A DNA stretch of 64,000 nt from an uncultured delta proteobacterium (GCA_963745035.1 CAVUVW010000024.1:8450-72449), one strand, 5' to 3'; positions 2,618 through 47,709 are shown, counted from the stretch's first letter. Notes: a model not told the origin generated them from the sequence alone. A program made the numbers and translations.

Positions 2618-2620
2618 ACA

Positions 2621-29778: not shown

Positions 29779-30270
29779 TTGAAGATCAGACCCGCGGCTT
29801 TATTTAGCTTTTGCGCTCTCGTGTTTTTCTGTGTGTTCGTATATCTGGCGCAGGAGTGGCGGCTGCAAGCGCGTCTTTATCCGTTTGCGATCGGTATACC
29901 GATGCTGATCCTCGCAATCGTCCAAGTCATCTTGGACTTAAAAGGCGTCACGGCGAAACAGTCGGCCGACGCCACGCCGATGGATTACCAGTTCACGAAA
30001 GACGTCGATCCGGTGACCGCCAGAAAAAGAGCCATCACGATGTTTGCCTGGCTCGTCGGGTTTTTCGTCGCCATATGGCTGCTAGGCTTTCCAATCGCCA
30101 TCGGATTGATGATGTTCACCTACCTGAAGTTTCAGGGCGGGGAATCCTGGCTGTTGTCGGGCACGCTGACAATCATCGCCTGTCTTTTCTTCTACGGCCT
30201 GTTCGTCAGGTTGCTCCACCTGCCGTTCCCGGACGGTCTGCTCACGACCTGGCTGGGGTTGCACGGCTAG
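29779..30270 (+). CDS. tctB: Tripartite tricarboxylate transporter small membrane subunit TctB
   Basis: Four-TM protein with ARLYP, LLGF, LFVRLLHLPFPDG; AAGGAG RBS before TTG. Confidence 0.85.
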   Translation: MKIRPAALFSFCALVFFCVFVYLAQEWRLQARLYPFAIGIPMLILAIVQVILDLKGVTAKQSADATPMDYQFTKDVDPVTARKRAITMFAWLVGFFVAIWLLGFPIAIGLMMFTYLKFQGGESWLLSGTLTIIACLFFYGLFVRLLHLPFPDGLLTTWLGLHG

Positions 30271-31464: not shown

Positions 31465-31490
31465 CGGATCGGTAGAAGGTGAAGACGTTT

Positions 31491-31543
31491 CACCACGGAG
31501 GCGCGAAGGACACGACGATTTCGTAGGGTGCGCTACGCGCACC
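31491..31543. repeat. CACCACGGAG 9-mer-type arm plus GTAG-family REP
   Basis: CACCACGGAGGCGCGAAGGACACGA followed by CGTAGGGTGCGCTACGCGCACC. Confidence 0.55.
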
Positions 31544-31623
31544 GAGGAATGGGAAGCTTGGCGTGGAGCGCGGCACACGTTTTCTGAAGGCTGCTGCCGA
31601 CACGCACGCGAAAGGAAGCTCAG

Positions 31624-32674
31624 ATGCTACGAGCAAGACACGAAAGTTATTTTGGTCGCCTGCATTGTCGCCTGGAGTTTGAACGGCGCCGCCAACCTTA
31701 GCGCCCAAAGCGAACCGTTTTACAAGGGCAAGACTGTTCGCGTGATCGTTGGCCTGTCACCGGGTGGCTTCTACGATCGCTGGGCGCGCTTACTCGCGCG
31801 CTTCATGCCACTTTACATGCCGGGAAATCCGAACTTCATCGTTCAAAACATGGCCGGCGCGGGTTCGATGATCGCGATGAACCATGTTTTCGGCGTCGCC
31901 AAACCCGACGGACTCACCGTCGTCATGCCCAACTACGGCGTCTATCTCGATCAAATCGCCGGGCGCAAAGAAGTCCGCTTCGATATCACCAAGGGCTACT
32001 TCATCGGCTCGCCGGAGAAAAGCGACGTCATTCTCTACGCGCGCGCCGATGCGCCGTTCAAATCCGTCCAGGACATGAGAAAACTGCCCGAGCCGCCCAA
32101 GTGCGGCGCCACCGGCACGGCCGGCGCCGATTACCTGATCGCGCGCGTGCTCGAGGATACACTCGGCATCAAGATCAACACGGTCCTGGGATACGCCGGC
32201 GGCAGTGAAATCGACATCGCCGTGGAAAAGGGCGAAGTTCAGTGCCGCGGCATGACCATCGCTCCTCACTTCGGCCGCGAGCCCTTCGATAGCTGGCACA
32301 AAAAAGGGTTCGATCAACATATCCTGCAAACCTCCGAGAAGCGCGATGCGCGCACGGGCGACGTGCCGACCATTTACGAAATCTTCGATAAAGAAAATAC
32401 CGCCGATGAGAGCCGGCGCGTAGCCGATGTGATTTTGCGCGGCGGCGATTTCGGCCGACCGATGATCGTCGCGCCGGGCACGCCCATGGACCGGGTGAAT
32501 ATACTTCGCGACGCGTACGTCAAATCTATGAATAATCCCGAGCTTCTGGCCGAAGCCAAGAAATGCCGCATGGACGTCGAGCCGGTCACCGGCGAGCAAC
32601 TACAGGCATTGGCCAAGAGAGTCATGAATCAGCCTCCCGCCGTCCTCAAACGCGTCAAAAAAATCCTTGAATAA
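31624..32674 (+). CDS. tctC: TctC paralog 2 (frameshift in leader)
   Basis: GLSPGGFYDRWAR, PPKCG, GEVQCRG. Confidence 0.9.
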
Positions 32675-32734
32675 AGCTCCGCAATCTTCGGCGCCGTGAT
32701 CCATACAGCGGCGCGAAATACAAAGGGAGAACAC

Positions 32735-33771
32735 ATGAGAGTTGCGATCTTAGCGCTAAGTCTAATCTTTGCCTGGGCTTCGCAGCTTCACGCCCAAGCC
32801 GCGCCATTTTATCAAGACAAGCAGATCCGCGTAGTCGTCGGCTTTACCACCGGCGGTTTTTACGATCGCTGGGCGCGCCTGCTGGCGCGCTACATGCCGA
32901 AATACATTCCGGGTAATCCCACTTTCATCGTGCAGAATATGCCCGGCGCCGGCTCGGTGGTCGCGGCCAATTACGTTTATAGCGTCGCCAAGCCGGACGG
33001 CTTGACGATCGGGTTTCCCAGCAGCGGACATCTATCTCGATCAGATCGTCGGCCGTCCGGAAGTAAAATTCGATTTGCGCAAGTTTGCCTGGATCGGCTC
33101 GCCGGTGATCCGAGCCGATGCTTTTCTATATGCGCGCCGATGCGCCCTACAAAAGCATCGCCGATATCAAGAACGCCAAAGAGCCGCCCAAATGCGGTTC
33201 CACTGGAACGGTCAGCACCGATTTCATTTTGGCGCGCATGTTGGAAGACACCTTGCCGCCGTTGAAGATCAATACTGTTCTCGGCTATCCCGGCGGATCC
33301 GAGATCGATATCGCCGTGGAAAAAGGCGAAGTCATGTGCCGCGGCATGACCGCGTCGCCCTACTTCGGACGCGAGCCGTTCTTGAGTTGGCAAAAGAAGA
33401 ACTTCGTTCGCGTCCTCCTTTATACCGGCGCGAAACGCGACGAAAGAATTCCCGACGTTCCGACCATCGCGGAGATCTTCGAGAAGGAAAAAGTCCCGGA
33501 GAACAGCCGCCGCGTCGCGCAAGTGATCCTCGCCGCCGAGTCTTTCGGACGGCCGATCATCGGCACGCCGGGCATTCCGGCGGACCGGGTCGCCATGCTG
33601 CGCCAAGCATTCGATCAATCGATGAAAGATCCCGAGCTGCTCGCTGAAACGAAGAAGCAGCGCATGGACGTCGATCCGACGAGCGGCGCGAGCCTGGAGA
33701 AACTCGCTCAGCAGATCTTGCAGCAGCCGCCGGAGGTTCTCGCGCGGGTCAAGAAAATTCTCAGCAATTAG
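32735..33771 (+). CDS. tctC: TctC paralog 3 (internal frameshifts)
   Basis: GFTTGGFYDRWAR; reconstructed from three frames. Confidence 0.85.
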
Positions 33772-33837
33772 TTGAAAGTACTCTTTTAAGTGGTAAAGTT
33801 CGTGCGAAAAATTCATTTTCAGGAGGTTAGAAACTCA

Positions 33838-34875
33838 ATGCACCGTTTGCTCGCAGCTTTGTTATTGCTGAGTTTTGATCACGGCGAGTCGGGCGAATGC
33901 CCAGACCCCGTTCTATCAGGGAAAGACGATTACGATCATCGTCGGCACCAAGGCCGGCGACGCCTATGACTTGTATCCGCGCATGCTCGCCGAGTTCATG
34001 CCGAAATACATACCCGGAAACCCGAACTTCATCATCCAGAATGTCCCCGGCGCCGCGTCAATGATCGCGGCCAATCAGGTCTACAATGTCGCCAAACCGG
34101 ATGGCTTGACCATCGGCGCCATTTACCCGGCGCTTTACTTCGAGCAGCTCACGAAAAAGCCCGAGGTGAAATTCGATTGGACCAAAGTTCGGCTGGGTCG
34201 GCAATCCGGTCACGTCGAACCATCTTTTGTACATGCGCTCGGATGCTCCTTATAAGTCGATGGACGACATCAAGAACGCCTCGGCGGCGCCCAAGTGCGG
34301 CTCCAACGGCATTACTTCGACCGGTTACTATCTGCCGAAGCTGATGGAAGAAACTCTCGGCACGAAGTTCGATATCGTTTTGGGCTATCAATCCGGCCAG
34401 GACGTGGATCTCGCCGTGGAGCGCGGCGAGGTGGTATGCCGCGCTTTTACCATCACCGCCTATTTTGCGCGCGAGCCGTTTATTTCGTGGCGCAAGCGCG
34501 GCTTCGTCAACACGCTGATGCAGAGCGGCGCCAAGCGCGACCCGCGGCTGAAAGACGCGCCGACGATCTACGAGCTGATGGACCGCTACAAAACCAACGC
34601 CGCCGGCAGAAGCCTTGGCGAAAGTGGTTTTGTCCGCCGGCGAATTCGGCCGTCCTTTGGTCACCCCTCCCGGCGTGCCCGCGGACCGCTTGAAAATTCT
34701 GCGCGACGCGTTCGACAAGTCGGTGAGCGATCCGGCGCTGTTGGCGGCTGCCGAAAAACGCCGCCTGGAAATGGATCCGGCGAGCGGCGCGGAGATTGAA
34801 GCATTGGCGAAGGAAGTCATGGCGGCGACCCCGGACGTCGTGCAGCGCATGGAAAAATTGTTGGGCGGAAAGTAA
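33838..34875 (+). CDS. tctC: TctC paralog 4 (internal frameshifts)
   Basis: GTKAGDAYDLYPR; reconstructed from several frames. Confidence 0.85.
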
Positions 34876-34967
34876 ACAGCTAGCGCCGGCTATCCCTCGA
34901 GGTTGTTGCATGACGGCAGCCTTGAGGGATATGCTCCGGTCAAATTTCGGCGGGAAGGAGAAACTTT

Positions 34968-35994
34968 ATGATTCTGATTCTCGTCCTCGTGCTAACACTC
35001 GGGTGGAGCTCGGCTCTACTCGCGCAGACGCCCTTCTATCAGGGCAAGACCATCAATATCATCGTCGGCACCAAAGCCGGCGACGTCTACGATCTCTATC
35101 CGCGCCTGCTAGCGGAATACATGCCCAAACATATACCGGGCAATCCCAACATCATCGTGCAAAACGTCCCCGGCGCCGCTTCATTGATCGCCGCCAATCA
35201 AGTCTATAACGTCGCCAAACCGGACGGCTTGACCATCGGAGCCATTTATCCGGCGCTTTATTTCGATCAGTTGATCAAAAAACCGGAAGCAAAATACGAC
35301 TGGGGAAAATTTCAGTGGATCGGCAGCCCGGTCAAATCGAATCATCTCCTTTATATGCGCGCCGACACGCCGTACAAGAGCGTTGACGACATCCGCAAGG
35401 CGACTACGGCGCCCAAGTGCGGCGCCACCGGTGTCGCCTCTACCGGATATTACATGCCCAAGCTCATGGAGGAAGTGCTCGGCACCAAGTTCGATATCGT
35501 GTCCGGTTACGTGTCCGGCCAGGACATCGATCTCGCCGTCGAGCGCGGCGAGTTGCAGTGCCGGGCCTTCACCATCACCGCGTATCACGCCCGCGAGCCT
35601 TTCATTTCCTGGCGCAAGAAGAATTTTGTCAACGTTCTCATCCAAACCGGCACCAAACGCGATCCGCGTCTCAAGGAATCTCCGACGATCTACGAGTCGA
35701 TGGACCGCTACAAAGTCGGCGAAGCCGGACGCAGTCTCGCCAAAGTCATCCTGGCTTCGGGCGACTTCGGCCGCCCGCTCGTTTTCGCTCCGGGAGTTCC
35801 AGCCGACCGCGTGAAGATTTTGCGCGACGCGTTCGACAAGAACGGTTACTGAGGCAGCCTTCTTGGCGGAGGCGGAAAAGCGCCGGCTCGAGATCGATCC
35901 AACCCAGTGGGATGAAATGCAATCGCTCGCGAAAGACGTAATGGCGACCCCGCCGGACATCGTCGCGCGCATGCGAAAGCTGCTAGGCGAATAA
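34968..35994 (+). CDS. tctC: TctC paralog 5 (frameshift near C-terminus)
   Basis: GTKAGDVYDLYPR; ordinary signal peptide. Confidence 0.88.
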
Positions 35995-36084
35995 TTCGCT
36001 CTGCGCTTAGCGCAGTCAAAATTTTGAACCCGAGCTTAGAGACAAACGTCGTCGGCTCGGAAAAGTCGGAAACCATCGCCGTTT

Positions 36085-37113
36085 ATGGCTCAACGCATCT
36101 TGGTCTTACTCCTCGCCCTGTTCTGGCCGCTTGACCTTCACGCCCAAGCGCCGTTTTACCAAGGCAAGACCATCCGGCTGGTCGCCGGGACGCCGGCCGG
36201 CAGCGTGTACGATCTCTACGCGCGCATGGTCGCTCAGTTCATGCCTAAACATATTCCCGGCGCGCCCAACATCATCGTGCAGAACATGCCGGGCGTGGCC
36301 TCGATGGTTGCGGCCAACTACATCTACGAGGTCGCCAAGCCCGACGGGCTGACCATCGGCTCGATCCAGCCGGCCCTTTATTTCGATCAGCTGGTCGGCC
36401 GCAAGGAAGCCAAGTTCGACTGGCAGAAATTTACCTGGATCGGCAACACGACCGTGTCGCACCACCTCCTCTACATGCGCAGCGATACGCCGTACAAGAC
36501 CATCGAAGACATCCGCAAAGCTTCGGTGCCGCCCAAGTGTGGCGCCGAGGGAACTGCATCATCTGCATACTATTTGCCGAAGCTGCTGGAAGAAACCATC
36601 GGCGCGAAGTTCAACGTCGTCACCGGCTACAACTCCGGCACGGATGTCGACCTGGCCGTCGAACGCGGCGAGGTGCAATGCCGTGCGTTTACGATTGCCG
36701 CCTTCTTCGCGCGCGAACCGTTTCACACCTGGCGCAAAAAAGGATTCGTTCACGTCGTCGTTCAGACCGGCAAAAAGCGCGATGCCAGCCTGCCCGACGT
36801 TCCCACCCTTCCCGAGCTCATGGAGAAGCACAAGACTGCCGACTCCGGCAAGCGCCTGGCGACGGTGGTTCTAGCTGCCAACGAGATTGGACGTCCTATC
36901 GTCGCCACGCCGGGAATTCCGGCGGATCGGGTAAAGATTCTTCGCGAGGCGTTTATGAAGGCGGTAAAGGATCCGGAACTCCTGGATGACGCCAAAAAGA
37001 AGAAGCTGGAATTGGATCCGGTGTCCGGCGAAGAGCTCGAAGCGCTGAGCAAAGAGATCATTGCCCAGCCGCCGGATGTAGTGGAGCGCATGAAAAAACT
37101 ATTAGGCACATAG
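36085..37113 (+). CDS. tctC: TctC paralog 6 (intact)
   Basis: GTPAGSVYDLYAR; 342-aa ORF with ordinary signal peptide. Confidence 0.92.
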   Translation: MAQRILVLLLALFWPLDLHAQAPFYQGKTIRLVAGTPAGSVYDLYARMVAQFMPKHIPGAPNIIVQNMPGVASMVAANYIYEVAKPDGLTIGSIQPALYFDQLVGRKEAKFDWQKFTWIGNTTVSHHLLYMRSDTPYKTIEDIRKASVPPKCGAEGTASSAYYLPKLLEETIGAKFNVVTGYNSGTDVDLAVERGEVQCRAFTIAAFFAREPFHTWRKKGFVHVVVQTGKKRDASLPDVPTLPELMEKHKTADSGKRLATVVLAANEIGRPIVATPGIPADRVKILREAFMKAVKDPELLDDAKKKKLELDPVSGEELEALSKEIIAQPPDVVERMKKLLGT

Positions 37114-37146
37114 ACTCGATTCGAACACCATGCAAAGGGAGAACGT

Positions 37147-38185
37147 ATGAAGCAAAGCGTAATGTGGTTTCTGGTTTTGTTTGCCGGATGGGCTTCGAGC
37201 GCGGCGGCGCAGACGCCTTTTTACCAAGGCAAGACAATCACGATCATAGCGGCGCCAAGCCGGGCGACGTCTACGATCTCTACCCTCGTCTGGTCGCGGA
37301 GTTCATGCCGAAGCACATTCCCGGCAATCCAAACATCATCATTCAGAACGTCGCCGGCGCGGCAGGTTTGATCGGTACCAATCAGCTTTACAATATAGCC
37401 AAACCTGACGGGCTAACCTTCGGCGCGATTTACCCGCCGCTCTACTTCGAGCAGCTCGCCAAACGGCCCGAAGTAAAATTCGACTGGACCAAGTTCATCT
37501 GGATCGGTAGCACGGTAAGCTCCAACAGTCACATGTATATGCGCGCCGATACGCCGTATAAAACCATCGAAGACGTCCGCAGCGCATCGACTCCGCCGAA
37601 ATGCGGCGCAACGGGCGTAACATCATCCGCTTATTACATGCCAAAACTCTTGGAAGAGGCCATCGGCACCAAGTTCGAGGTTGTGCTCAGGTTATGTCGC
37701 CGGCTCGGATATCGATCTCGCCGTCGAGCGCGGCGAAGTTCAGTGCCGGGCGTTTACGATGAATGCATATCTTCGCGCGCGAGCCGTTCATCACTTGGCG
37801 CAAGAAAAATTTCGTGCGCGTGCTCTATCAGACCGGAAATAAGCGCGGATCCGCGCGCTCAAGGACGTGCCGCTGTTCAACGAACTTGATGGACAAGTAC
37901 AAGACGCCGGAAAACGTCCGTCGATTAACCAAAGTCGTGGTAGCAGCGGACGAGTTCGGCCGCCCGCTGGTATTCCCTCCCGGAGCGTCCCCGCCGATCG
38001 GGTCAAAATTATCCGTGACGCGTTCAACAAGACGATCAACGATCCCGCTCTGCTTGGCGGAAGCGGAAAAACGCCGGCTCGATATCGATCCGGCTACGGG
38101 CGAGGAACTCGATGCCTTAGCGAAGGAAGTCATGACCGCGCCTCCGGATGTCGTCGAGCGCGTGAAGAAACTGATCGGCATGTAA
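37147..38185 (+). CDS. tctC: TctC paralog 7 (multiple frameshifts)
   Basis: GAKPGDVYDLYPR; ordinary signal peptide. Confidence 0.82.
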
Positions 38186-38196
38186 CGTACTGAGGA

Positions 38197-39282
38197 ATGA
38201 CGATGGGCGTTCAAAAGTTCAAAGGTTCAAGCGTTCAAGGTTTTCGGACTCGTCTCCGTTCTGACCTTTGAACTTTTGAACCCCTTGAACCTTGAACGGG
38301 CGTCTGCCCAGACGCCCTACTACCAAGGCAAGCAAATCCGCCTCATCATCGGCTCGACTCCACGGCGGCGGCTACGATCTCTGGCCGCGGGCCGCGGCCC
38401 GTTATCTGACGAAGCACATTCCCGGCAATCCCGACATCGTGCGCGCAGAACATGCCCGGGGCCGGCGGCCATCGTCGCGGCGAATTATCTTTACGGTATC
38501 GCCAAGCCCGACGGCCTGACCATCGGCGCCTTCAATCCCGCGCTGTACTTCGACCAGCTCATCAAGCGGCGACGAAGTCAAATTCGACTGGCGCCAAAAT
38601 CGCCTGGATCGGCTCGCCCGAGCAGAACGAGATCATCCATTTCATCCGCACCGACGCCCCGTTCAAAGCATCGACGATCTGCGCAACGCCAAGGAGCCGC
38701 CGAAATGCGGCAGCTCGGGGACCGGCACCACCGGGCATTACATGCCGCGCCTGCTGGAAGAAGTCATCGGCATCAAAACTCACATCGTCAGCGGTTATCA
38801 GGGCGGCTCCGAAATCGATCTCGCCATCGAAAGAAACGAGGTCGTCTGCTGGTCGCCGTTGATCGCCACTTATTTCGGCCGAGAGCCTTACAAGCGGTGG
38901 CAGAAACCGGTTTCACCCGGGTGGTGCTGCAAACCGGCAGCAAACGCGACCCGCGATTGAAAGAGGTGCCCACTCTTCCGGAGTTGATGCAGCAATACAA
39001 AACTCCCGACGCGGGTAAACGTCTGGCGACTGGTGATTCTCACCGCCGTGACCATGGGCCGCCCCATCGCCGCGCCGCCGGGAACACCACCGGACCGAGC
39101 TCAAAATCCTGCGCGAAGCGTATGCCAAGGCGTTGGCCGACCCTGAGTTACTCGCCGAAGCCGACAAGCGCAACTGGGACGTCGAGCCCCTGAGCGGCGA
39201 AGAGCTCGAATCCCGCGCCAAGGAAGTGATCCACCAACCGGCCGAGGTGATCGAGAAAATGAAATGGGTGCTTGGAAAATGA
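38197..39282 (+). CDS. tctC: TctC paralog 8 (many frameshifts; palindrome-encoded leader)
   Basis: GGGYDLW, IERNEVVCWSPL; reconstructed. Confidence 0.75.
38209..38297. repeat. 89-bp GTTCAA/TTGAAC palindrome in TctC8 signal sequence
   Basis: GTTCAAAAGTTCAAAGGTTCAAGCGTTCAA-loop-TTGAACTTTTGAACCCCTTGAACCTTGAAC. Confidence 0.9.
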
Positions 39283-39325
39283 CCCTGCCAAGATCTATTT
39301 CGTAGAGCAAAGACGGAGGTGCTCC

Positions 39326-40430
39326 GTGAAGCGATGCCCGCGCCGCGCGCTCCTCTCCCCGTTCAATCGTTCAAAAGTTCAACCGTTCAAAGTTCTCGGA
39401 CTCTTGATTTTCTCCGTCGTTGAACTGTTGAACCCTTTGAACGTTGAACCTTCGTTGGCCCAAGCCAATTTCTACCAAGGCAAGACTCTCACCATCATCG
39501 TCGGCACCAAGGCGGGCGACGTCTACGATCTCTATCCGCGCCTGCTTGCCGAGTTCATGCCCAAGTACATTCCCGGAAATCCGAATATCATCATTCAAAA
39601 CGTGCCCGGCGCGGCGTCGCTGATCGCGGCGAATCAAGTTTACAACGTTGCGAAACCCGACGGGCTCACCTTGGCCGCGATCTACCCTTCTCTTTATTTC
39701 GATCAACTCGTCAAAAAGCCGGAAGCGAAGTTCGATTGGAGCAAATTTGGCTGGATCGGCAGTCCGGTCGGTTCCAATCACATGATGTACATGCGCACCG
39801 ACACGCCGTACAAGACCGTCGAGGACGTGCGCGCCGCCGCTCGCCCGCCGAAATGCGGCACCAGCGGAGTGACATCGACCGGCTATTACATTCCCAAGCT
39901 GCTCGAAGAAGCGATCGGCGCCAAATTCGAGATCGTCACCGGCTACCAGGCGGGTCAGGATGTCGATCTCGCCGTCGAGCGCGGCGAAGTCGTCTGCCGC
40001 TCGTTCACGATCACGGCGTTTCATGCTCGCGAACCGTACTTCACCTGGCGCAAGAACAACTTCGTTCGCGTGCTCTATCAAACCGGCAAGAAGCGCGACT
40101 CGCGCCTTAAAGACGTGCCGACCATGCACGAGCTGATGGACAAGTACAAAACGCCGGAGAACGTGAAGCAGCTTGCCAAAGTCATTCTCATCGCCAGCGA
40201 CCTCGGCCGACCGATCGTCGCGCCGCCGTCGGTGCCGGCGGATCGATCTGAAAATTCTGCGCGACGCCTTCAATAAGACCGTCAGCGATCCGCAATTTTT
40301 ATCCGAAGCGGAGCGGCGCAGGCTCGAGATCGATCCGTCCACGGCCGAAGAAATCGACGCCCTGGCGAAAGAAGCGATGGTCACGCCGCCGGAAGTCGTC
40401 GAGCGCATGAAGAAAGTTCTCGGCATGTAA
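39326..40430 (+). CDS. tctC: TctC paralog 9 (one frameshift; palindrome-encoded leader)
   Basis: GTKAGDVYDLYPR; GGAGG RBS before GTG. Confidence 0.88.
39361..39449. repeat. 89-bp palindrome in TctC9 signal sequence
   Basis: GTTCAATCGTTCAAAAGTTCAACCGTTCAA-loop-TTGAACTGTTGAACCCTTTGAACGTTGAAC. Confidence 0.9.
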
Positions 40431-40450
40431 CAGCAAGCGAGGGATCGCAA

Positions 40451-41535
40451 ATGACGAAACTCGTTCAAAAGTTCAAAGGTTCAAGCGTTCAAGGTTCTCG
40501 GACTCTTGATTTTCTCTGTCGTTGAACTGTTGAACCCTTTGAACGTTGAACAGGCATTCAGCGCAGGCGAACTTCTACCAAGGCAAAACCCTCACGATGG
40601 TCGTCGCTTCGACCACCGGCGGCGGCTACGATCTCTGGGCGCGGCTCACGGCGCGTCATATCGTCAAGTATATCCCGGGAAACCCGTCGATCGTGGTGCA
40701 GAACATGCCCGGCGCCGGCAACATCATCGGCGCCAACTACGTGTACGGCGTCGCCAAACCCGACGGCTTGACCCTCGGCGCCGTCAATCCCGCGCTTTAT
40801 TTCGACCAGCTCGTGGGCAGATCCGAAGTGAAATTCGACTGGGCGAAATTCAACTGGATCGGCTCGCCGGAAAAAAACGACGTCGTTTCCTACATGCGCG
40901 CCGACCAGCCGCTCAAGACCATCGACGATTGGCGCAACGCAAAGGAGCCGCCCAAATGCGGCAGCACGGGCACGGGCAGCACCGGCCACTATATTCCGCG
41001 CCTTCTGGAAGAAACCCTCGGCGTCAAGACTCAGATCGTGAGCGGCTATCCAGGCGCCTCGGATATCGAGCTGGCCATCGAGCGCGGCGAGGTCTTTTGC
41101 TGGTCGCCGCTACTCGCCACGTACTTTGGCAGGGAGCCTTACCGGCGCTGGCACAAGTCCGGCTACGTGCGCGTCCTGATGCAAACCGGCGGCAAGCGCG
41201 ATGGGCGATTGAAGGACACTCCAACACTCAGCGAGCTCATGCAGCAATACAAAAGTTCCGACGCGGGCCGGCGCCTGGCGAAAGTCATTTTGACTGCAGC
41301 GAGCCTTGGCCGGCCCATCGGTACCGCGCCAGCCACACCGCCCGACCGCGTGAAGATTTTGCGCGAAGCTTATGCCAAGGCCATCGCCGATCCGGAATTA
41401 CTCGCCGAAGCAGCCAGGCAAGGCTGGGAAGTCGATCCAACCACCGGGGAGGAACTGCAGGCCTTGTCCAAAGAAGTCATGGCGCAGCCGCGCGAGATCA
41501 TCGAGCGCATGAAGTGGGTGCTCGGACGGGAATGA
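40451..41535 (+). CDS. tctC: TctC paralog 10 (indels in leader; palindrome-encoded leader)
   Basis: ASTTGGGYDLWAR, GEVFCWSPL. Confidence 0.88.
40463..40551. repeat. 89-bp palindrome in TctC10 signal sequence
   Basis: Left arm identical to TctC8, right arm identical to TctC9. Confidence 0.9.
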
Positions 41536-41538
41536 CAA

Positions 41539-42609
41539 ATGCGAGGGCCGTTCAAAAGTTCAACCGTTCAAACGTTCAAGGCTGTCGGAATCGTTTTCAT
41601 TCTGACCCTTGAACTTTTGAACCTTGAACGGGCATTCGCGCAAGCGAATTTTTATCAGGGCAAGACCATTTCCATGATCGTCGGCACCAAGGCCGGCGAC
41701 GCGTATGATCTTTACCCGCGCCTCCTGGCCGAGTTTTTGCCGAAACACATTCCCGGCAATCCCACCATCATCATTCAGAATGTCCCCGGAGCGGCGTCAC
41801 TGGTCGCTGCAAATCAGGTCTACAACATTGCCAAGCCGGACGGCTTGACCCTTGGCGCGATCTACCCTGCGCTTTACTTGGACCAGCTCGTGAAAAGACC
41901 GGAGGTCAAATACGACTGGAACAAGTTCGGCTTGATCGGGAGTCCGGTGAGCTCCAATCACATGATGTACATGCGCGCCGACGCTCCCTACAAAACACTC
42001 GATGACGTGCGCTCCGCCGGCCAGCCGCCAAAATGCGGCGCCAGTGGCATCGCGTCTACAGGATATTACATTCCCAAGCTTCTCGAAGAAGCGATCGGCG
42101 CCAAGTTCGACATCGTCGCCGGCTATCAAGGCGGACAGGATATCGAGCTCGCGGTGGAGCGCGGCGAATTGGTCTGTCGATCGTTCACCATTACCACCTT
42201 TCATTCCCGGGAGCCCTTTTTTACCTGGCGCAAGAAAAGCTTCGTGCGCGTGCTCTACCAAACCGGCAACAAGCGCGATGGGCGCCTCAAAGACGTGCCG
42301 ACGATCTATGAGATTATGGAGCGCTACAAGACGCCGGAGCCGGTGAAAAACCTCGCGAAGGTGGTTCTCATCGCGAGTGACTTGGGACGGCCGATCGTTG
42401 CGCCGCCGGGAGTGGCTCCCGAGCGTTTGAAGATATTGCGCGATGCCTTCGACAAAACCGTGAGCGACCCGGCTTTCTTGGTCGAGGCCGAGCGGCGCAA
42501 GCTCGAGATATCTCCATCGCAATGGGACGAAATACAAACCTTGGTCAAAGAAGCGCTGGCTACCCCGCCGGAAGTCGTCGAGAGAATGAAAAAGATTTTA
42601 GGAATGTAA
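41539..42609 (+). CDS. tctC: TctC paralog 11 (intact; palindrome-encoded leader)
   Basis: MRGPFKSSTVQTFKAVGIVFILTLELLNLERAFA-QANFYQGK..GTKAGDAYDLYPR. Confidence 0.92.
   Translation: MRGPFKSSTVQTFKAVGIVFILTLELLNLERAFAQANFYQGKTISMIVGTKAGDAYDLYPRLLAEFLPKHIPGNPTIIIQNVPGAASLVAANQVYNIAKPDGLTLGAIYPALYLDQLVKRPEVKYDWNKFGLIGSPVSSNHMMYMRADAPYKTLDDVRSAGQPPKCGASGIASTGYYIPKLLEEAIGAKFDIVAGYQGGQDIELAVERGELVCRSFTITTFHSREPFFTWRKKSFVRVLYQTGNKRDGRLKDVPTIYEIMERYKTPEPVKNLAKVVLIASDLGRPIVAPPGVAPERLKILRDAFDKTVSDPAFLVEAERRKLEISPSQWDEIQTLVKEALATPPEVVERMKKILGM
41550..41629. repeat. 80-bp palindrome in TctC11 leader (one 9-bp right-arm unit lost in frame)
   Basis: Right arm TTGAACTTTTGAACCTTGAAC has three units. Confidence 0.9.
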
Positions 42610-42631
42610 ATGGCCGGTGGAGAGGATCAAA

Positions 42632-43714
42632 ATGATGAACTGGTTCAAAAGTTCAACCGTTCAAACGTTCAACGGATTGAGCGTGCTTCTTTTGTTCGTC
42701 GTTGAACTGTTGAACCCTTTGAACGTTGAACGGGCATTCGCGCAAGCGAACTTTTATCAAGGCAAGACCGTGCGCATCGTCGTCGGCAACTTGCCCGGCG
42801 ACACCCACGATCTTTTCGCCCGCGCTTACTCGCGCAGCATGGGCAAGCATATTCCCGGCAATCCGGCGATCCTGGTGCAGAACATGCCCGGCGCGGGCGG
42901 CATGATCGCCGCCAATCACGTCTACAACGTCGCCAAGCCCGACGGCCTGACTTTGGGTTCCCCTTCTCCGGCGCTTTACTATGCGCAGCTCGTCGGCAGC
43001 AAGGAAGCCAAATTCGATTGGACCAAGTTCAATTTTATCGGCGCGCCGGAGCGCAACGGCCATTTGTTGTTCATGCGCTCGGATTCCCCTTACAAGACCC
43101 TCGACGACATCCGCAATGCCAAAGAGGCGCCGCGCTGCAGCGCCACCGGCGTCGGCACCAGCGGCCACGACGTGCCCAAGCTGCTCGAAGAGATGGTCGG
43201 TTTGAAGTTCCGCCTGATCACCGGCTACCCCGGCGGCGCCGAGATGGATCTGGCAATCGAGCGCGGCGAGGCCATATGCCGCGCCATCACCATCGCGGCG
43301 TTTTTCGCGCGCGAGCCATTTATCACTTGGCACAAGAACGGCTTCGTCCGCATCATGCTGCAAACTTCGCGGCAGAGAAATCCCAGAATTCCGGATGTGC
43401 CGACGCTCTTCGAATTAATGGAGCAGTACAAGACACCCGAGATCAAGCGCCGCCAGATGCTTGTCTATCTGGGTGTCGGCGGCTTCGGTGCCTGGCCGAT
43501 CCTGGCGACTCCCGGCATCCCCGCGGATCGCGTAAAAATCCTGCGTGAAGCCTTCGCAAAAACGATGAAGGATCCTGACTTTCTCGGCGAAGCGAAAAAG
43601 AGCGGGTGGGAAATCCGACCCACCAGCGGCGAAGACCTCCAGGCCCTTGCTAAAGAAGTTATCGATCAACCGCCGGAAGTCGTCGAATGGCTAAAAAAAT
43701 TGTTGGGCAAATAG
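42632..43714 (+). CDS. tctC: TctC paralog 12 (intact; palindrome-encoded leader)
   Basis: MMNWFKSSTVQTFNGLSVLLLFVVELLNPLNVERAFA-QA..GNLPGDTHDLFAR. Confidence 0.92.
   Translation: MMNWFKSSTVQTFNGLSVLLLFVVELLNPLNVERAFAQANFYQGKTVRIVVGNLPGDTHDLFARAYSRSMGKHIPGNPAILVQNMPGAGGMIAANHVYNVAKPDGLTLGSPSPALYYAQLVGSKEAKFDWTKFNFIGAPERNGHLLFMRSDSPYKTLDDIRNAKEAPRCSATGVGTSGHDVPKLLEEMVGLKFRLITGYPGGAEMDLAIERGEAICRAITIAAFFAREPFITWHKNGFVRIMLQTSRQRNPRIPDVPTLFELMEQYKTPEIKRRQMLVYLGVGGFGAWPILATPGIPADRVKILREAFAKTMKDPDFLGEAKKSGWEIRPTSGEDLQALAKEVIDQPPEVVEWLKKLLGK
42643..42731. repeat. 89-bp palindrome in TctC12 leader
   Basis: GTTCAAAAGTTCAACCGTTCAAACGTTCAA-loop-TTGAACTGTTGAACCCTTTGAACGTTGAAC. Confidence 0.9.
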
Positions 43715-43734
43715 CTTTGAAGGTGAGGAGGAGC

Positions 43735-44823
43735 ATGATTTCAACGCATTGGTTCAAACGTTCAACCGTTCAAACGTTCAACGTTCTCGGACTGTTCATT
43801 TTCTCCGTCGTTGAACTATTGAACCCTTTGAACCTTGAACAGGCATTCGCGCAAGCGCCTTTTTACCAAGGCAAGACGATTCGCATCGTCGTCGGCTACC
43901 AGCCCGGCGACAGTCACGACTTATGGGCGCGAACCTATATCCGCTTTCTCGGCAAACATATTCCCGGCAATCCCGATTTCGTCGTGCAAAATATGCCCGG
44001 CGCCGGTTCGATGATCGCCGCTAACCACGTGTTCAACTTGACTAAGCCCGACGGGCTCACTCTCGGCTCCATCGGTGGAGCGCTCTTCATGGCGCAATTG
44101 ACGGGGCGCAAGGAAGTTCAATTCGACTGGCCGAAGTATTCCTGGATCATGACCCCTGACCGGGGCGGCCATCTTTTGTACATGCGCACGGACGCGCCGT
44201 ATAAGACTTTCGAAGATCTGCGCCAAACCAACGATCCGCCGAAATGCTCCGCCACTGGCGTCGGCAGCACCGGCTACGACTTGCCGAAACTGCTCGAGGA
44301 GGCGCTCGGCTTCAAGTTTCGCGTCATCAGCGGCTACCCCGGCGGCGCCGATCAAGATCTGGCTATGGAACGCGGCGAAGTTCACTGCCGCGCCTTTATC
44401 ATCGAATCTTTTTTTCAGCGCGAGCCGTTCCCGACCTGGATGAAGAAGAACTTTGTGCGCGTCTGGCTCCAGACCGAGCGCAAGCGCCATCCTAAGCTGC
44501 CCAACGTGCCGACGATCTTCGAGTTGATGGATCAATACAAAGTCTCCGATTCGAAGCGGCGCTTGGTTGAAACCTATCTCGGCATCTGGGGATTTGGCTC
44601 CCGGCCGATTGTCGCGACGCCCGGCGTGCCGGCAGACCGTCTGCAGATCCTGCGCGATGCCTTCAACAAAATGTTCAAAGATCCGGAATTTCAAGAAGAG
44701 CTGAGAAAACGCAATTGGGAGGTGGAGTTCGTCGCCGGCGAAGAACTTCAATCGCTCGCCAAAGATGTCGTCAATCAGCCGCCCGATGTAGCGGCCGGGC
44801 TGAAACGCGTTTTGAGCCAGTGA
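43735..44823 (+). CDS. tctC: TctC paralog 13 (intact; palindrome-encoded leader)
   Basis: GYQPGDSHDLWAR; GAGGAGGAG RBS. Confidence 0.92.
   Translation: MISTHWFKRSTVQTFNVLGLFIFSVVELLNPLNLEQAFAQAPFYQGKTIRIVVGYQPGDSHDLWARTYIRFLGKHIPGNPDFVVQNMPGAGSMIAANHVFNLTKPDGLTLGSIGGALFMAQLTGRKEVQFDWPKYSWIMTPDRGGHLLYMRTDAPYKTFEDLRQTNDPPKCSATGVGSTGYDLPKLLEEALGFKFRVISGYPGGADQDLAMERGEVHCRAFIIESFFQREPFPTWMKKNFVRVWLQTERKRHPKLPNVPTIFELMDQYKVSDSKRRLVETYLGIWGFGSRPIVATPGVPADRLQILRDAFNKMFKDPEFQEELRKRNWEVEFVAGEELQSLAKDVVNQPPDVAAGLKRVLSQ
43752..43840. repeat. 89-bp palindrome in TctC13 leader
   Basis: GTTCAAACGTTCAACCGTTCAAACGTTCAA-loop-TTGAACTATTGAACCCTTTGAACCTTGAAC. Confidence 0.9.
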
Positions 44824-44930
44824 CTGATTATTGCCTGCGTTCGGGGATTGCCACGTCTGTGTTGTGAGACACCGCAGCGGCAAGGAAGTCGACAGAGTGT
44901 CATGCGAGCGCCGGAAAGCGAGGTCCTTTT

Positions 44931-46037
44931 ATGATGTACCGCTCGGAAATACGGCGACTTCTTCTAGTCAAAAGATCCAAGGCTCAAGTGTTCAAGACCC
45001 TCTCTTTCGTCGCCCTTCTGACGTTTGAACTATTGAACCCCTTGAATCTTGAACAGGCGTCTGCACAGACGCCCTTCTATCAAGGCAAAACCATTCGCGT
45101 GATCGTCGGCTACCAGCCCGGCGACAACCACGATCAATGGGCGCGCACCTACGTGCGCTTCATGGGCAAGTATATTCCCGGCCATCCCGACTTCGTCGTT
45201 CAAAACATGCCGGGCGCCGGCTCCATGATCGCGGCCAATCACGTCTACAACATGACCAAGCCGGACGGGCTCACTCTGGGCTCCTTCGGCGGCGCGCTGA
45301 TCATGGCGCAATTGACCGGGCGCAAAGAAGTGCAATTCGATTGGCCGAAGTACTCATGGATCGGCACGCCGTATCGCGCCGGCCATCTGCTGTTCATGCG
45401 CAGCGATGCGCCCTACAAATCCATGGACCAACTGCGCCAGGCCAGCGATCCGCCGCGTTGTTCCGCGACCGGAGTGGGCAGTACCGGCTACGATATCCCG
45501 CGTCTCCTCGAAGATGCGTTGGGACTGAAATTCAAAGTGATCAGCGGCTATCCCGGCGGCGCCGATCAAGACCTCGCGATGGAACGGGGTGAGGTCCATT
45601 GCCGCGCGATTACCATCGACGGATTTTTGGGCCGCGAGCCTTTCATCACCTGGCTCAAAAAAGGATTCGTGCGCGTCTGGCTGCAAACCGAAAAACAGCG
45701 TAATCCAAAGATACCCGAGGTGCCGACGATTTTTGAATTGATGGATCAGTTCAAGATCCCGGATGCAAAGCGCCGACTGGTGAATACCTATTTGGGTTTG
45801 TGGGGCTTTGGCTCGATGCCGATCGTCGCCTCGCCGGGTACGCCGCCCGATCGAGTCAAAGTCTTGCGCGAAGCGTATGCGAAGATCTTCACCGATGCCG
45901 AGTTCATAGAAGAGACCACCAAAAAAAATTGGGAGCCGAGGCCGGTAAACGGTGAGGAGTTGGAAGGACTAGCCAAGGAAGTCGTCAACCAGCCGCCCGA
46001 AGTCAGCAGCGCACTGAAACGAATTTTGAGTCAGTAG
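44931..46037 (+). CDS. tctC: TctC paralog 14 (intact; degenerate palindrome leader)
   Basis: GYQPGDNHDQWAR; close paralog of copy 13. Confidence 0.92.
   Translation: MMYRSEIRRLLLVKRSKAQVFKTLSFVALLTFELLNPLNLEQASAQTPFYQGKTIRVIVGYQPGDNHDQWARTYVRFMGKYIPGHPDFVVQNMPGAGSMIAANHVYNMTKPDGLTLGSFGGALIMAQLTGRKEVQFDWPKYSWIGTPYRAGHLLFMRSDAPYKSMDQLRQASDPPRCSATGVGSTGYDIPRLLEDALGLKFKVISGYPGGADQDLAMERGEVHCRAITIDGFLGREPFITWLKKGFVRVWLQTEKQRNPKIPEVPTIFELMDQFKIPDAKRRLVNTYLGLWGFGSMPIVASPGTPPDRVKVLREAYAKIFTDAEFIEETTKKNWEPRPVNGEELEGLAKEVVNQPPEVSSALKRILSQ
44966..45054. repeat. 89-bp palindrome in TctC14 leader, left arm decayed
   Basis: AGTCAAAAGATCCAAGGCTCAAGTGTTCAA-loop-TTGAACTATTGAACCCCTTGAATCTTGAAC. Confidence 0.8.
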
Positions 46038-46209: not shown

Positions 46210-47709
46210 ATGCTTGAGGCATTTATCTCGGGTTTTTGGCAAGTACTGGCATGGCCGGCTTTTGGCTACATGCTTCTCGGCATCGCCATTGGTTTTTGGG
46301 TTGGTCTTCTGCCCGGCATCGGCGGTTTGGCCACGTTGGCGCTGATGCTGCCGTTCTCTTACAACATCAAAGACCCGATATCGGCGTTCGCCTTTTTGCT
46401 CGGCATGCTTGCCGTAACCAGCACCACCGGCGATTTGAGTTCCATACTCTTCGGCATCCCCGGCGAGGGGTCCTCAGCCGCATTGATACTTGACGGCTAT
46501 CCCATGACGAAAAATGGCGAAGCCGGCCGCGCATTGGGCGCCGCGATCACGGCCTCCGTTGTAGGCGCAATCATCGGCGCTGTATCATTGGCTTTATCGA
46601 TACCGATTATGCGTCCGCTGGTACTCCTCTTCGGCTCGCCGGAGCTGTTTATCATAGCGATCATGGGCATCACGTTTATTGGCACCCTCGCCGGAGCGTC
46701 CCTGATCAAGGGTCTTCTGGCAGGCGGCCTCGGCTTGATGTTGGCGGCCATCGGCGTCGATCCTCAGACCGGGTCGCTCCGCTATACCTTCGGCTCGCTT
46801 TATCTGTGGGACCGTCTGGACCTTATTCCAGTCGTCGTCGGCCTATTCGCCATTCCCGAAATCGTTGACTTGTCGGTTCGCGGCACCAGCATCGCGGGCC
46901 ACAAGCCGGATAAATTAACCGGAGTGATGGAAGGAGTCAAAGACACCTTTCGCCATTTCTGGCTGGTCGTGCGCTGCAGCTTGATCGGCGTCTACTTCGG
47001 CGTGCTTCCGGTGTTGGGCGCCAACGTGGCGCAATGGATCTCCTACGCGCACGCGGTGCAAGGCTTGAAAGACAAGTCGCGCGCTGGAAAAGGCGCTATC
47101 GAGGGGCTGCTCGGCCCCGGCGCGGCCAACAATTCAACCCGCGGCGGCGATTTGATTCCAACCCTCGCCTTCGGTATTCCCGGCAGCGGCGCCATGGCAT
47201 TGCTGCTCGGCGCGATGTTGATCGTCGGCCTCAACCCCGGACCCGAAATGCTCAAGTCGCGGCTCGATGTAACGTTTTCCATGGTCTGGGTGTTGATCAT
47301 CGCCAATCTGATCGTTGCAGCGCTGTGCTTTTTGATTCTGAATCATCTTGCGGCATTGACGTTTATCCGCGGCACCTTACTGATTCCATTTTTGATGTTT
47401 CTGGTCTTCATCGGCTCGTTTACCGCCAACAACGATCTCAACGACATCATCAGCACGTTGATCTTCGGCTTTATCGGCTTTTGCATGGTCAAGTTCGGTT
47501 GGCCGCGCCCGCCCTTGATCCTCGGACTCACCCTCGGCAAGATCGCGGAAAATTACCTGTGGATCTCGACCGCCGCCTACGGCGCAAGATGGCTCACGTT
47601 TCCTACGGTGGTCGGTCTCATTGCGCTGACCATCTTTACGGTGGCCTACCCCACGATCAAAGAGCGCATGGGTCGAGCCAAATACGAGCGCCCGGAAGAC
47701 GCTGTCTAA
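46210..47709 (+). CDS. tctA: Tripartite tricarboxylate transporter permease TctA
   Basis: GLLPGIGG, SILFGIPG, DGYPMTKNGEAGRAL, ANNS, IPTLAFGIPGS, PPLILGLTLG. Confidence 0.95.
   Translation: MLEAFISGFWQVLAWPAFGYMLLGIAIGFWVGLLPGIGGLATLALMLPFSYNIKDPISAFAFLLGMLAVTSTTGDLSSILFGIPGEGSSAALILDGYPMTKNGEAGRALGAAITASVVGAIIGAVSLALSIPIMRPLVLLFGSPELFIIAIMGITFIGTLAGASLIKGLLAGGLGLMLAAIGVDPQTGSLRYTFGSLYLWDRLDLIPVVVGLFAIPEIVDLSVRGTSIAGHKPDKLTGVMEGVKDTFRHFWLVVRCSLIGVYFGVLPVLGANVAQWISYAHAVQGLKDKSRAGKGAIEGLLGPGAANNSTRGGDLIPTLAFGIPGSGAMALLLGAMLIVGLNPGPEMLKSRLDVTFSMVWVLIIANLIVAALCFLILNHLAALTFIRGTLLIPFLMFLVFIGSFTANNDLNDIISTLIFGFIGFCMVKFGWPRPPLILGLTLGKIAENYLWISTAAYGARWLTFPTVVGLIALTIFTVAYPTIKERMGRAKYERPEDAV

Follow-up and report, generated by a model that had tools for sequence, protein, structure and literature searches.

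Rickettsia palindromic elements (RPE) form a repeat family with members in intergenic DNA and others that lie in frame within coding genes, according to a review (PMC10969869). They resemble the element described here in that a conserved peptide is encoded by a palindromic repeat and tolerated in the product, as in the leaders of the TctC proteins studied in this work. However, as described there, RPE are of about 150 bp, with many insertions into unrelated genes at surface sites, whereas the TctC leaders are of about 89 nt and belong to one gene family; moreover, and unlike RPE, the TctC element makes up a whole signal peptide, is composed of hexamer arrays and has frozen synonymous sites. 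The lineages are also different (here Candidatus Binatia or delta proteobacterium MAGs), and the resemblance is functional only. In the palindromic amphipathic repeat coding elements (PARCEL), the palindromic repeat is itself coding, as stated in their description (PMC2996958). There they form tandem repeat domains of surface proteins with no intergenic family seen, in contrast with the signal peptide formed by the TctC element.

REP/BIME elements, such as those behind malE in the malEFG operon, form hairpins that alter the stability or processing of operon mRNA. This classic malE case likewise lies behind a binding-protein gene. Correia elements have been described as RNase III hairpins (PMC2649163). 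The likeness of REP/BIME and Correia elements to the present family lies in hundreds of short imperfect palindromes behind genes, transcribed as hairpins, but they are extragenic and are not known to provide a functional peptide, while the TctC family has translated leaders, tandem hexamer arms and mostly single arms. Regarding the association of REP/BIME with REP-type transposases, the only link examined here gave nothing. Mycobacterial MIRU are intercistronic operon repeats whose short frames overlap the stop and the start of neighbouring genes, and for which translational coupling has been proposed. The repeat units described here also occupy intercistronic gaps of an operon, but MIRU are direct repeats of 40-100 bp with separate mini-ORFs, whereas the TctC element is the leader of the downstream protein. 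Finally, the DNA uptake sequences of Neisseria and Haemophilus are genus-specific motifs, often arranged as inverted pairs behind genes and also present, in preferred frames, within coding sequence. GTTCAA is similarly a genus-specific short motif under nucleotide-level selection, but uptake sequences are single 9-12-mers with thousands of copies, whereas GTTCAA forms four-hexamer arrays at about 260 places, and the present data hold no link of these arrays to DNA uptake.

The window, that is, the whole 64-kb stretch of DNA analysed, contains an operon with the order TctB, fourteen TctC paralogs and TctA, the genes flanking the TctC array being identified by family profiles. Its host is a soil bacterium. 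The profile PF03401 (TctC / Bug periplasmic binding proteins) matched copies 6, 11, 12, 13 and 14 with 49-70 bits against a curated cut-off of 27. The genes are as follows.

29752..30270, + strand: small membrane subunit of TctB type, with which the operon begins (PF07331, E 1.2e-13)
30399..38185, + strand: TctC paralogs 1-7, whose signal peptides are short and ordinary and lack the GTTCAA palindrome (sequence, trees, leader alignments)
38203..39282, + strand: TctC paralog 8, with several 1-nt indels as assembled (sequence, run contigs)
39326..40430, + strand: TctC paralog 9, starting at a GTG preceded by a GGAGG site (sequence)
40451..41535, + strand: TctC paralog 10, leader out of frame at two places as assembled (sequence)
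41539..42609, + strand: TctC paralog 11 (PF03401)
42632..43714, + strand: TctC paralog 12 (PF03401)
43735..44823, + strand: TctC paralog 13 (PF03401)
44931..46037, + strand: TctC paralog 14 (PF03401)
46210..47709, + strand: large membrane subunit TctA, with which the operon ends (PF01970, E 4.4e-120)

Seven of the 14 TctC copies (8-14) carry, after the start codon and ahead of the A-x-A site, an element composed of (GTTCAANN)x4, a 29-nt loop and TTGAAC x4, located at these positions.

38209..38297, + strand: leader palindrome of copy 8; 29-nt loop between a left arm spaced 8-8-8 and a right arm spaced 8-9-7
39361..39449, + strand: leader palindrome of copy 9, in frame (sequence, fold)
40463..40551, + strand: leader palindrome of copy 10 (sequence)
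41550..41629, + strand: leader palindrome of copy 11, in frame; 80 nt long, with the right arm spaced 8-7 (sequence, fold)
42643..42731, + strand: leader palindrome of copy 12, in frame (sequence, fold)
43752..43840, + strand: leader palindrome of copy 13, in frame (sequence, fold)
44966..45054, + strand: leader palindrome of copy 14, in frame; right arm 8-9-7 with one T for C (sequence)

The motif GTTCAANNGTTCAA occurs 25 times in the window (0.01 expected), always inside 38209-45038, and the 9-bp version of the repeat occurs eight times (0.03 expected). A previous sequence-only reading had described these seven palindromes, and its observations are partly confirmed: the elements are real, the loop is of 29 nt in all seven, and copy 11, as stated there, lacks one 9-nt unit. 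The TTGAAC units of the right arm are present, but their array is not regular, being spaced 8-9-7 (8-7 in copy 11); similarly, the four GTTCAA units of the left arm hold generally but not for copy 14, where the arm is degenerate and one of four hexamers is exact. As assembled, copies 9, 11, 12, 13 and 14 can be read in frame from a start codon across the palindrome to the mature protein, but copies 8 and 10 cannot. The right arm does not end right at the A-x-A site, since one or two residues intervene and are themselves encoded by a small palindrome. Among the leaders compared, the palindrome begins 5-30 nt past the start codon, its median distance from the preceding stop is 37 nt, the loop is of 29 nt in 36/64 and of 32 nt in 14/64, and 20 nt (39 leaders) or 23 nt (18 leaders) separate the end of the arm from the mature codon.

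The n-region encoded by the left arm, F-K-S-S-K-V-Q-x-F-K/N, is rich in Lys; the loop, rich in T, encodes some 10 residues of hydrophobic core, and the right arm encodes E-L-L-N-P-L-N-L/V-E. As anticipated from the sequence, the palindromic leaders have the positively charged n-region and the uncharged hydrophobic core, usually of about 7-15 residues, of a Sec-type (signal peptidase I) leader, with a median net charge of +4, a hydrophobic run of 10 and a mean Kyte-Doolittle value of 2.8 (44 palindromic leaders). The predicted cleavage site, (A/T/V)-x-A|Q, is identical to that of the ordinary leaders of the paralogs. The c-region of a usual Sec signal peptide is short and polar, of 3-7 residues, with small residues at -3 and -1. 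The 13-residue c-region with two Glu found here, against four residues in the ordinary paralog leaders, appears atypical for signal peptidase I, in agreement with the earlier description.

Several lines of sequence evidence support that the leader palindromes are translated and form the whole leader. Through each of the genome's six full elements, only one of the six frames is open, the one in which the mature protein is read. In a regular 8-8-8 TTGAAC array a TGA arises in every frame, which the 8-9-7 spacing avoids, and a regular 8-8-8 palindrome in the same genome (C14:275217) has zero open frames; this supports the view that the coding version has adapted to stay open through its spacing. 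Length changes among leaders are multiples of three, and independent gene calls in public data take in the palindromic leader. As assembled, 52 of the 70 leaders (16 genomes) can be read in frame from a start that precedes the left arm; the other 18 include 11 from two noisy assemblies and two from the window, whose assembly carries many 1-nt indels. In the assembly, the copy 8 ATG at 38203 misses the frame by one base, but contigs of runs X1 and X7 without one base at 38205 place it in frame. Contigs of three runs also lack one C at 38281, a loss that would close the frame of copy 8; these probably come from other copies of the family, because they are much deeper (206 of 289 in X6, 7 contigs) than the local sequence. 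Copy 10 presents the shift of copy 8 and also, after the right arm and ahead of the A-x-A codons, one additional base that is absent from all 69 other leaders, and none of the run contigs listed resolves its frame. The out-of-frame assembly of copies 8 and 10, and an ORF finder that places the copy 8 start at a TTG within the right arm, would fit palindromes that are intergenic, with the TctC genes starting downstream. We disfavour this and consider it barely credible: the 20-23 nt from the right arm to the mature N-terminus leave no room for a signal peptide, frame and triplet indels are conserved across 16 genomes, ribosome-binding sites lie upstream of the left arm, and the run contigs mend copy 8.

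Conservation of the arms was then compared with that of the rest of the gene. Among 57 leaders, which are kin rather than independent sequences and were chosen by hexamer presence, so that the figures are somewhat inflated, pairwise identity was 95.3% in the hexamers, 57.7% in the spacers, 62.4% in the loops and, for the mature parts, 49.5% at third codon positions, and the hexamers exceeded even the second codon positions of the mature domain (77%). Codon choice followed the same pattern, GTT being used in 42/43 hexamer positions (13% in the mature parts), TCA in 42/42 (5%), CTT in 34/34 (11%), TTG in 86/88 (24%), CAA in 42/42 (47%) and GAA in 90/90 (49%), while spacer bases vary even when the residue changes. 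These comparisons support a constraint on the leader nucleotides beyond the needs of the peptide, and therefore a second, nucleic-acid-level role of the palindrome is very likely. It could be argued that only the peptide matters, FKSSKVQ.F and ELLNPLNLE being functional motifs and the palindrome a historical accident. The motifs are kept in 43-45 of 52 in-frame leaders and the leader is found solely on TctC proteins, but the fixation of hexamer synonymous sites on rare codons while spacer-encoded residues vary freely, the excess over second codon positions, and the conservation of hexamer arrays at about 200 non-coding places make this explanation quite improbable.

Folding predicts a stable hairpin, as had been expected, with a mean MFE of -35.4 kcal/mol against -17.9 for shuffled sequences (40 elements); a function for it is inferred. 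Nevertheless, of 1512 arm pairs, 70 had changed, 52 of them breaking the pair, 17 keeping it through G-U and one being compensatory, and a search for consistent pairing between opposed spacers showed none. To judge from these sequences, selection is on the hexamer sequence and pairing itself is not shown as its target, because the arms are without compensatory evolution and the spacers unpaired. The earlier proposal of a dual-function module is thus partly supported, in its nucleotide constraint beyond the peptide but not in selection for base pairing.

The codons of the A-x-A cleavage site and of the first mature residues lie in a second, small hairpin.

38298..38317, + strand: small hairpin of copy 8, 8-bp stem, R-A-S-A|Q-T-P (MFE -13.8 kcal/mol)
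39455..39468, + strand: small hairpin of copy 9, one stem pair differing on both sides from the common class (fold)
41634..41649, + strand: small hairpin of copy 11, 6-bp stem and 4-nt loop, A-F-A|Q-A-N (fold)
42737..42750, + strand: small hairpin of copy 12 (fold)
45056..45073, + strand: small hairpin of copy 14, with an 8-bp stem that spans the codons for A-S-A|Q-T-P (fold)

Both hairpins formed in three of the four window leaders folded; the small one of copy 13 did not form in that fold. A small hairpin of MFE -6 or lower was present in 59/70 palindromic leaders versus 17/45 others. It comprises at least four sequence classes in different registers, and within one class two of six pairs showed changes on both sides. 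The G+C-rich stem plus U tract of an intrinsic terminator does not describe the element (30 terminator-like sites found versus 24.7 expected), the F-Y codons after the small hairpin were not T-richer in palindromic leaders (3.8 versus 4.0 T per 6 nt), and Rfam covariance models applied to 23500-46500 gave two chance-level matches far below gathering scores.

The sequence-only reading had also pointed to a free copy of the repeat and proposed a genome-wide count. The free copy is real.

23773..23924, strand not assigned: intergenic member with 9-bp-period GTTCAA arms and a 95-nt core with its own G+C-rich hairpin (sequence)

The genome contains 264 GTTCAA arms (about 260 arrays, some 200 of them non-coding), with 174 single arrays versus 43 pairs. 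Inverted pairs are thus 43 of 219 family elements, with GTTCAA preceding TTGAAC in 43 cases and the reverse order in two; most members, being single arrays, are therefore unable to form the hairpin. Single arrays began within 40 nt past a same-sense stop in 87/174 cases and an opposite-sense one in 31, against 8-9% at random, and 9-bp arrays were found in 18/18 sampled genomes of the genus and, with one match each, in 2/12 outside it. The family is hence supported as mostly intergenic, just behind stop codons, and genus-specific. The arms form terminal inverted repeats as in MITEs; the extragenic palindromes of REP/BIME do not describe the family, in which 43/219 elements are inverted pairs and seven leader copies are intragenic and translated. 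The leader type was present in 16 of 31 genus genomes, and all 60 distinct 8-9-7 right arms in the loci compared precede a TctC mature start.

These distributions bear on whether the arrays act as duplex DNA, that is, as sites for a sequence-specific protein such as a regulator, nucleoid protein or transposase-like enzyme, the RNA hairpin being a by-product and the leader copies being kept since the protein must bind at each cistron. Each hexamer is conserved while spacers and pairing are not, single arrays predominate, arms of repeated short sites are like transposon ends, and a 100-kb hot spot of arrays contains a Y1-transposase-like gene. However, a symmetric site needs no orientation bias, and the arrays favour the sense strand of the upstream gene 3:1; the 8-9-bp period is not helical; and no candidate binding protein was found. 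The Y1-like family, moreover, appears unlinked to the arrays, as it occurs in 5/5 genera and was not found in 5 of the 18 array-bearing genus genomes, and of five Y1_Tnp matches in the genome, the one locus examined had no flanking arrays. We therefore consider a duplex-DNA site unlikely.

We believe that the reading of a translated, coding-adapted GTTCAA repeat that serves as the entire TctC signal peptide and has a second nucleotide-level function is reasonably probable. According to this proposal, the left arm would supply the n-region, the loop the core and the right arm the segment that follows, with the small hairpin supplying the A-x-A site, and selection on the nucleotide sequence would hold the hexamers for the second function. 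The latter may be the same as that of the approximately 200 intergenic members in sense orientation behind stops, namely an intercistronic mRNA structure or recognition site. It might act on the TctC cistron upstream, protecting or marking its 3' end, or gate the translation start of the cistron that contains it, or both; gating is possible because the hairpin begins so close behind the start codon. More tentatively, and with doubt prevailing, these approximately 110 nt could be three superposed codes: hexamers that a putative genus-specific factor recognises, a pair of RNA hairpins, and a tripartite signal peptide complete with its cleavage site. If so, GTTCAA arrays would mark post-transcriptional (or strand-specific DNA) control behind about 200 genes, this control would have been absorbed into the secretion leaders of the 14-cistron operon so that the expression of each cistron is set by its own signal-peptide codons, and the locus would document how a non-coding repeat gave rise to a signal peptide.

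As to its origin, the element had been interpreted as a domesticated mobile repeat. The genome-wide, mostly intergenic family agrees with a repeat origin, but nothing in the data points to mobility of the leader copies, which follow gene orthogroups. A single capture followed by vertical descent with losses fits better than repeated insertion, because one coding solution is common to all and its distribution follows the orthogroups. The coding version would thus have arisen once from a genus-specific inverted repeat of GTTCAA arrays, as the shared 8-9-7 spacing suggests, and then been passed down with its genes throughout the genus; some copies would have been lost, and neighbouring ones would have undergone local conversion at least once. 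Concerted evolution without selection, in which gene conversion among leaders or genomic copies mimics conservation, could account for copies 9 and 10, whose loop and right arm differ at 2/59 positions although their mature parts fall in different clades, and for palindromic copies not forming one clade in the mature-domain tree (AU p 4.6e-8). Conversion should, however, homogenise spacers and loops too, and these are 58% and 62% identical; leader variants track orthogroups across species; and the non-monophyly is explained by losses, since 5/8 changes in a 109-gene tree are non-palindromic genes nested in palindromic orthogroups. We thus regard such conversion as a highly improbable explanation. 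Window copies 1 and 2 appear among the losses, as their orthologs elsewhere keep the palindrome (trees, leader alignments), which is thus dispensable for single cistrons. Judged as presence/absence variation of the MITE type, the leader palindromes 1 and 2 are equally well explained by deletion. Presence/absence variation was also seen for an array in a molybdoenzyme gene, and deletion explains it equally well.

The operon under study belongs to a genome of 7.4 Mb and 58% G+C in 28 contigs (G000), of which positions 8450-72449 of contig C24 are the window, and close relatives appear in the records as Candidatus Binatia bacterium or as uncultured delta proteobacterium MAGs. Pfam places fourteen tandem TctC-type binding-protein genes between the following two:

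TctB, 29752-30270, start of the operon (Pfam)
TctA, 46210-47709, end of the operon (Pfam)

All fourteen mature proteins open with an F-Y-Q-G-K-like motif. About 135 TctC-family paralogs are present in G000, several of them in tandem arrays (contigs C11, C13, C24 and C28), an expansion on a scale similar to that of the Bug family in Bordetella. In copies 1-7 the leaders are ordinary, about 20 residues long and without the hexamers, and in copies 8-14 the leader is encoded by an element in which four GTTCAA units, spaced at 8 nt, are joined to four TTGAAC units through a 29-nt loop. The sequence-only reading had described this repeat palindrome in the seven leaders, and this was confirmed by the motif GTTCAANNGTTCAA, which occurs 25 times in the window (0.01 expected), always in leaders 8-14. 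The lengths that it reported were also reproduced, with 89 nt in six copies and 80 nt in copy 11, where one 9-nt unit is missing. As to the layout, the palindrome stands, but the right arm is not evenly spaced, its units following one another at 8-9-7 nt, and the left arm is not intact in all seven copies, being degenerate in copy 14.

Of the three phases in which a TTGAAC unit can be read, one contains a TGA stop. Units spaced evenly at 8 nt run through all three phases, which closes every frame, and the 8-9-7 spacing skips the TGA phase. The right arm has stops in two of the three forward frames, and the third, which reads E-L-L-N-P-L-N-L/V-E, is that of the mature protein. Exactly one of the six frames is open in each of the six full operon elements, and none of the six in a regular 8-8-8 palindrome found elsewhere in G000. 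The leader is encoded by this stretch and is also included in the gene calls of public data. Since other spacings (such as 8-7-9 or 9-8-7) would likewise stay open, the shared 8-9-7 arrangement points to a probable single origin of the coding version. Every frame-based statement on the window carries the caveat of single-base indels, which break many of its genes (for example 32696-33771, 37164-38185 and 38276-39282) in the way expected of a long-read assembly that has not been polished. In the assembly as it stands, copies 9, 11, 12, 13 and 14 stay in frame from the start codon across the whole palindrome, and copies 8 and 10 are out of frame. These positions were compared with the contigs of four public runs, bearing in mind that multi-copy repeats blur such contigs. 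The base at 38205 is missing in the contigs of two runs, which brings the ATG of copy 8 into frame, and the same contigs lack single bases at 38362, 38441, 38593, 39032 and 40246, in the bodies of copies 8 and 9. Some run contigs also lack the C at 38281; their depth greatly exceeds that of the surroundings, which makes other repeat copies their probable source. In copy 10, one base that the other 69 palindromic leaders lack follows the right arm, ahead of the A-x-A codons, and neither of its frame defects was resolved among the indel rows listed for the contigs of the four runs.

The sequence-only reading had also proposed that the palindrome acts as a nucleic acid besides encoding a signal peptide. 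The peptide pattern was matched by 43-45 of the 52 in-frame leaders, in which the hexamer codons were fixed (GTT 42/43, TCA 42/42, CTT 34/34, TTG 86/88, CAA 42/42 and GAA 90/90), the synonymous choice being frozen on codons seldom used in the mature parts of these genes (GTT 13%, TCA 5%, CTT 11%, TTG 24%). The spacer positions vary, and the residues with them (K/N, S/G/R, K/R/T and G/T/A). Among 57 alignable leaders, mean pairwise identity was 95.3% in hexamers, 57.7% in spacers and 62.4% in loops, and over the opening 150 nt of the mature part the values were 64.6% overall, 76.6% at second and 49.5% at third codon positions, all of them upper estimates, as the set was chosen for recognisable arms and the sequences are kin. 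The excess of synonymous conservation in the arms is present (hexamers versus third positions), and the contrast between hexamers and spacers within the same 30 nt is independent of how the set was chosen. A purely peptide-level explanation fails on this contrast, and so does simple gene conversion as the cause of arm conservation. The comparison shows the stretch to be under direct nucleotide constraint besides coding for the leader. Its hexamers are even more conserved than second codon positions in the mature domain, which makes it an unusually clean natural case of codes that overlap within a signal-peptide region.

Palindromic leaders have 33-50 residues (median 38.5), an n-region net charge of +4, a hydrophobic run of 10 and a c-region of 13, the values for ordinary paralog leaders being 19, +1, 14 and 4, respectively. 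Both types end in (A/T/V)-x-A, with Q after the cleavage site, at an equal distance from the mature motif; the long, acidic c-region of the palindromic type, a predicted signal peptide, is atypical. The 8-9-7 arm was found in 16 of the 31 genomes of the genus, G000 included, with at most nine copies per genome (like those of 9-nt arrays and of the Y1-like family, this tally takes in the unpublished genome G005, on which nothing else rests). Neighbouring arms share a strand and are some 1.1 kb from one another; a reversed control gave no matches. In the fetched loci, all 60 distinct 8-9-7 arms precede a TctC mature start by 20-30 nt, and the palindrome is present in 70 of 115 distinct TctC starts of this type. 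As assembled, 52 of these 70 leaders have an in-frame start ahead of the left arm; among the 18 that do not, 11 are in two assemblies as indel-ridden as the window and three are open to the edge of the inspected stretch. Length variants differ by three bases, both in the loop (29 or 32 nt) and from the arm to the mature codon (20 or 23 nt). A search for the leader beyond TctC yielded eight matches, all of them TctC, among only 23 scored candidates, a faint indication that the leader may be confined to this family, and no convincing array was seen in other N-terminal coding regions of G000. In other lineages, TctC homologues have leaders of the ordinary type, a few of them with a left-arm-like n-region only. 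Two loci from MAGs of other lineages, L052 (about 3724) and L055 (about 1519 and 3719), contain TctC leaders that start with F-E-K-F-K-R-S-R-V-E-G and are without a right arm.

The palindromic copies do not group as a single clade in a tree built from the 14 mature parts (AU p 4.6e-8), which could be read as a spread of the leader between paralogs. That reading is weakened by the repeated loss seen in a genus tree of 109 genes, where about 14 operon orthogroups are conserved and leader state tracks the orthogroups, needing eight changes, five of which are non-palindromic genes nested in palindromic groups. Copies 1 and 2 (30399-31717) are nested in this way, and the palindrome is retained in orthologs whose mature parts are up to 90% identical. 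The remnants in the two copies are a lone TTGAAC (copy 2) and a hydrophobic stretch resembling the loop (copy 1), and their leaders look like elements that have recently decayed to plain signal peptides. Leaders 9 and 10 (39391-39449 and 40493-40551) differ at two of 59 positions of loop and right arm, although their mature parts are in different clades, which suggests local gene conversion between neighbours.

The genome as a whole contains 264 arms of at least three units, most of them with a 9-nt period, arranged in 43 GTTCAA-then-TTGAAC pairs, two pairs in reverse order and 174 single arrays. All 18 genomes sampled from the genus have the 9-nt array, and two of 12 genomes from neighbouring genera gave one match each (control, none). 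The motif is present in intergenic DNA throughout G000, with half of the single arrays (87 of 174) starting no more than 40 nt behind the stop of a gene encoded on the GTTCAA-reading strand, against only 31 behind a stop in the opposite sense and a random expectation of 8-9%. This position and strand bias suggest a role of the family, which is specific to a lineage of uncultured soil Binatia-type bacteria, in operon mRNA. The leader palindromes are close behind the preceding TctC stop (median 37 nt, 36 of 66 within 40 nt), that is, in the usual place of family members, and the T-C-G-G-A that begins their loops also comes after intergenic arrays. In other TctC paralogs of G000, the 5'-end arrays are upstream of the ribosome-binding site and outside the coding region. 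The case of the leader element suggests a possible route from non-coding repeat to secretion leader.

Forty regular elements fold into one long imperfect hairpin, made of four 6-bp helices and, inside them, a C-G-G-A/U-C-C-G stem (mean MFE -35.4 kcal/mol versus -17.9 for shuffles, z -5.9). The window leaders, for which such a hairpin had been proposed, gave z -2.0 to -5.5 with their flanks, and three ordinary leaders folded likewise gave +0.6, +0.6 and -2.9. Pairing of the long arms is predicted by folding, and no covariation was seen there: a single one of the 70 changed pairs among 1512 was compensatory, and spacers pair inconsistently, so that it is the hexamer sequence that is conserved. 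A DNA-binding factor at the arrays is the main rival explanation. A second, small hairpin, overlooked in the sequence-only reading, sits between right arm and mature codons, over those of the cleavage site, with an MFE of -6 or lower in 59 of 70 palindromic versus 17 of 45 other leaders. It comes in at least four unrelated sequence classes, which encode R-A-S-A-Q-T-P, A-S-A-Q-Q-T-P, P-A-A-A-Q-T-P-P or A-F-A-Q-A-N. In the largest, the one class for which a formal covariation count was possible, 94.8% of cells pair, two of six pairs have changes on both sides, and the covariation score was reached by none of 500 shuffles. The classes are in different registers, and RNAalifold on the 70 cleavage-site segments returned no pairs and no consensus structure. 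Rfam gave no family match, and a terminator reading of the hairpins was rejected on terminator-site counts and on the T content after the small hairpin.

Palindromic repeats within genes are known, mostly as tolerated passengers; here the repeat is a functional N-terminal module of about 60 predicted exported proteins in 16 genomes. In the openly accessible literature, we found no description of a repeat palindrome that acts as a signal peptide, and no paper linking Binatia with the TctC transporter family. We infer that the second role of the leader element would be that of the intergenic members, a transcript element just behind a cistron, a spot that in a tightly packed array coincides with the first 30-40 codons of the next gene. 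REP hairpins protect or mark the 3' end of the upstream message, and such an effect on the upstream binding-protein message is plausible here. Translation start might also be gated by the hairpin, which is plausible because it begins 5-30 nt after the start codon, and the two effects are compatible. An analogous transcript role is described for Correia elements with RNase III (PMC2649163), and in-frame palindromic elements are already known as RPE (PMC10969869).

Other members of the family deserve mention. At 23773-23924 of the window, and at many G000 loci, there is an intergenic composite in which GTTCAA arms surround a C-rich/G-rich hairpin core that recurs almost unchanged (for example on contigs C11, C17 and C19). 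Contig C13 has a hot spot at about 1,700,000-1,802,000 with 40 arms in 100 kb, all TTGAAC up to 1,758,750 and all GTTCAA from 1,774,274 on, and a Y1-transposase-like gene (1,761,018-1,761,905) lies between the two sets. A replication-linked orientation was discarded, there being no GC skew switch at this hot spot, and a REP-type transposase seems unlikely as partner, the one locus examined having no flanking arrays and the gene family no phyletic link to them. Two arrays lie in frame inside other genes. At C15:253238-253267 (locus L130, ORF 457-2808, minus strand), four GTTCAA units with an 8-nt period read R-F-K-S-S-K-V-Q-Q-F-N in a variable loop of a 783-aa molybdenum hydroxylase large subunit (PF02738, PF20256, PF01315), whose orthologs have the array in five of eight cases, lack it in two and show it decayed in one. 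At C13:834875-834898 (locus L132, ORF 512-2728, minus strand), three units with a 9-nt period encode R-S-N-R-S-K-R-S-S in a low-complexity linker of a 738-aa VWA-domain protein.
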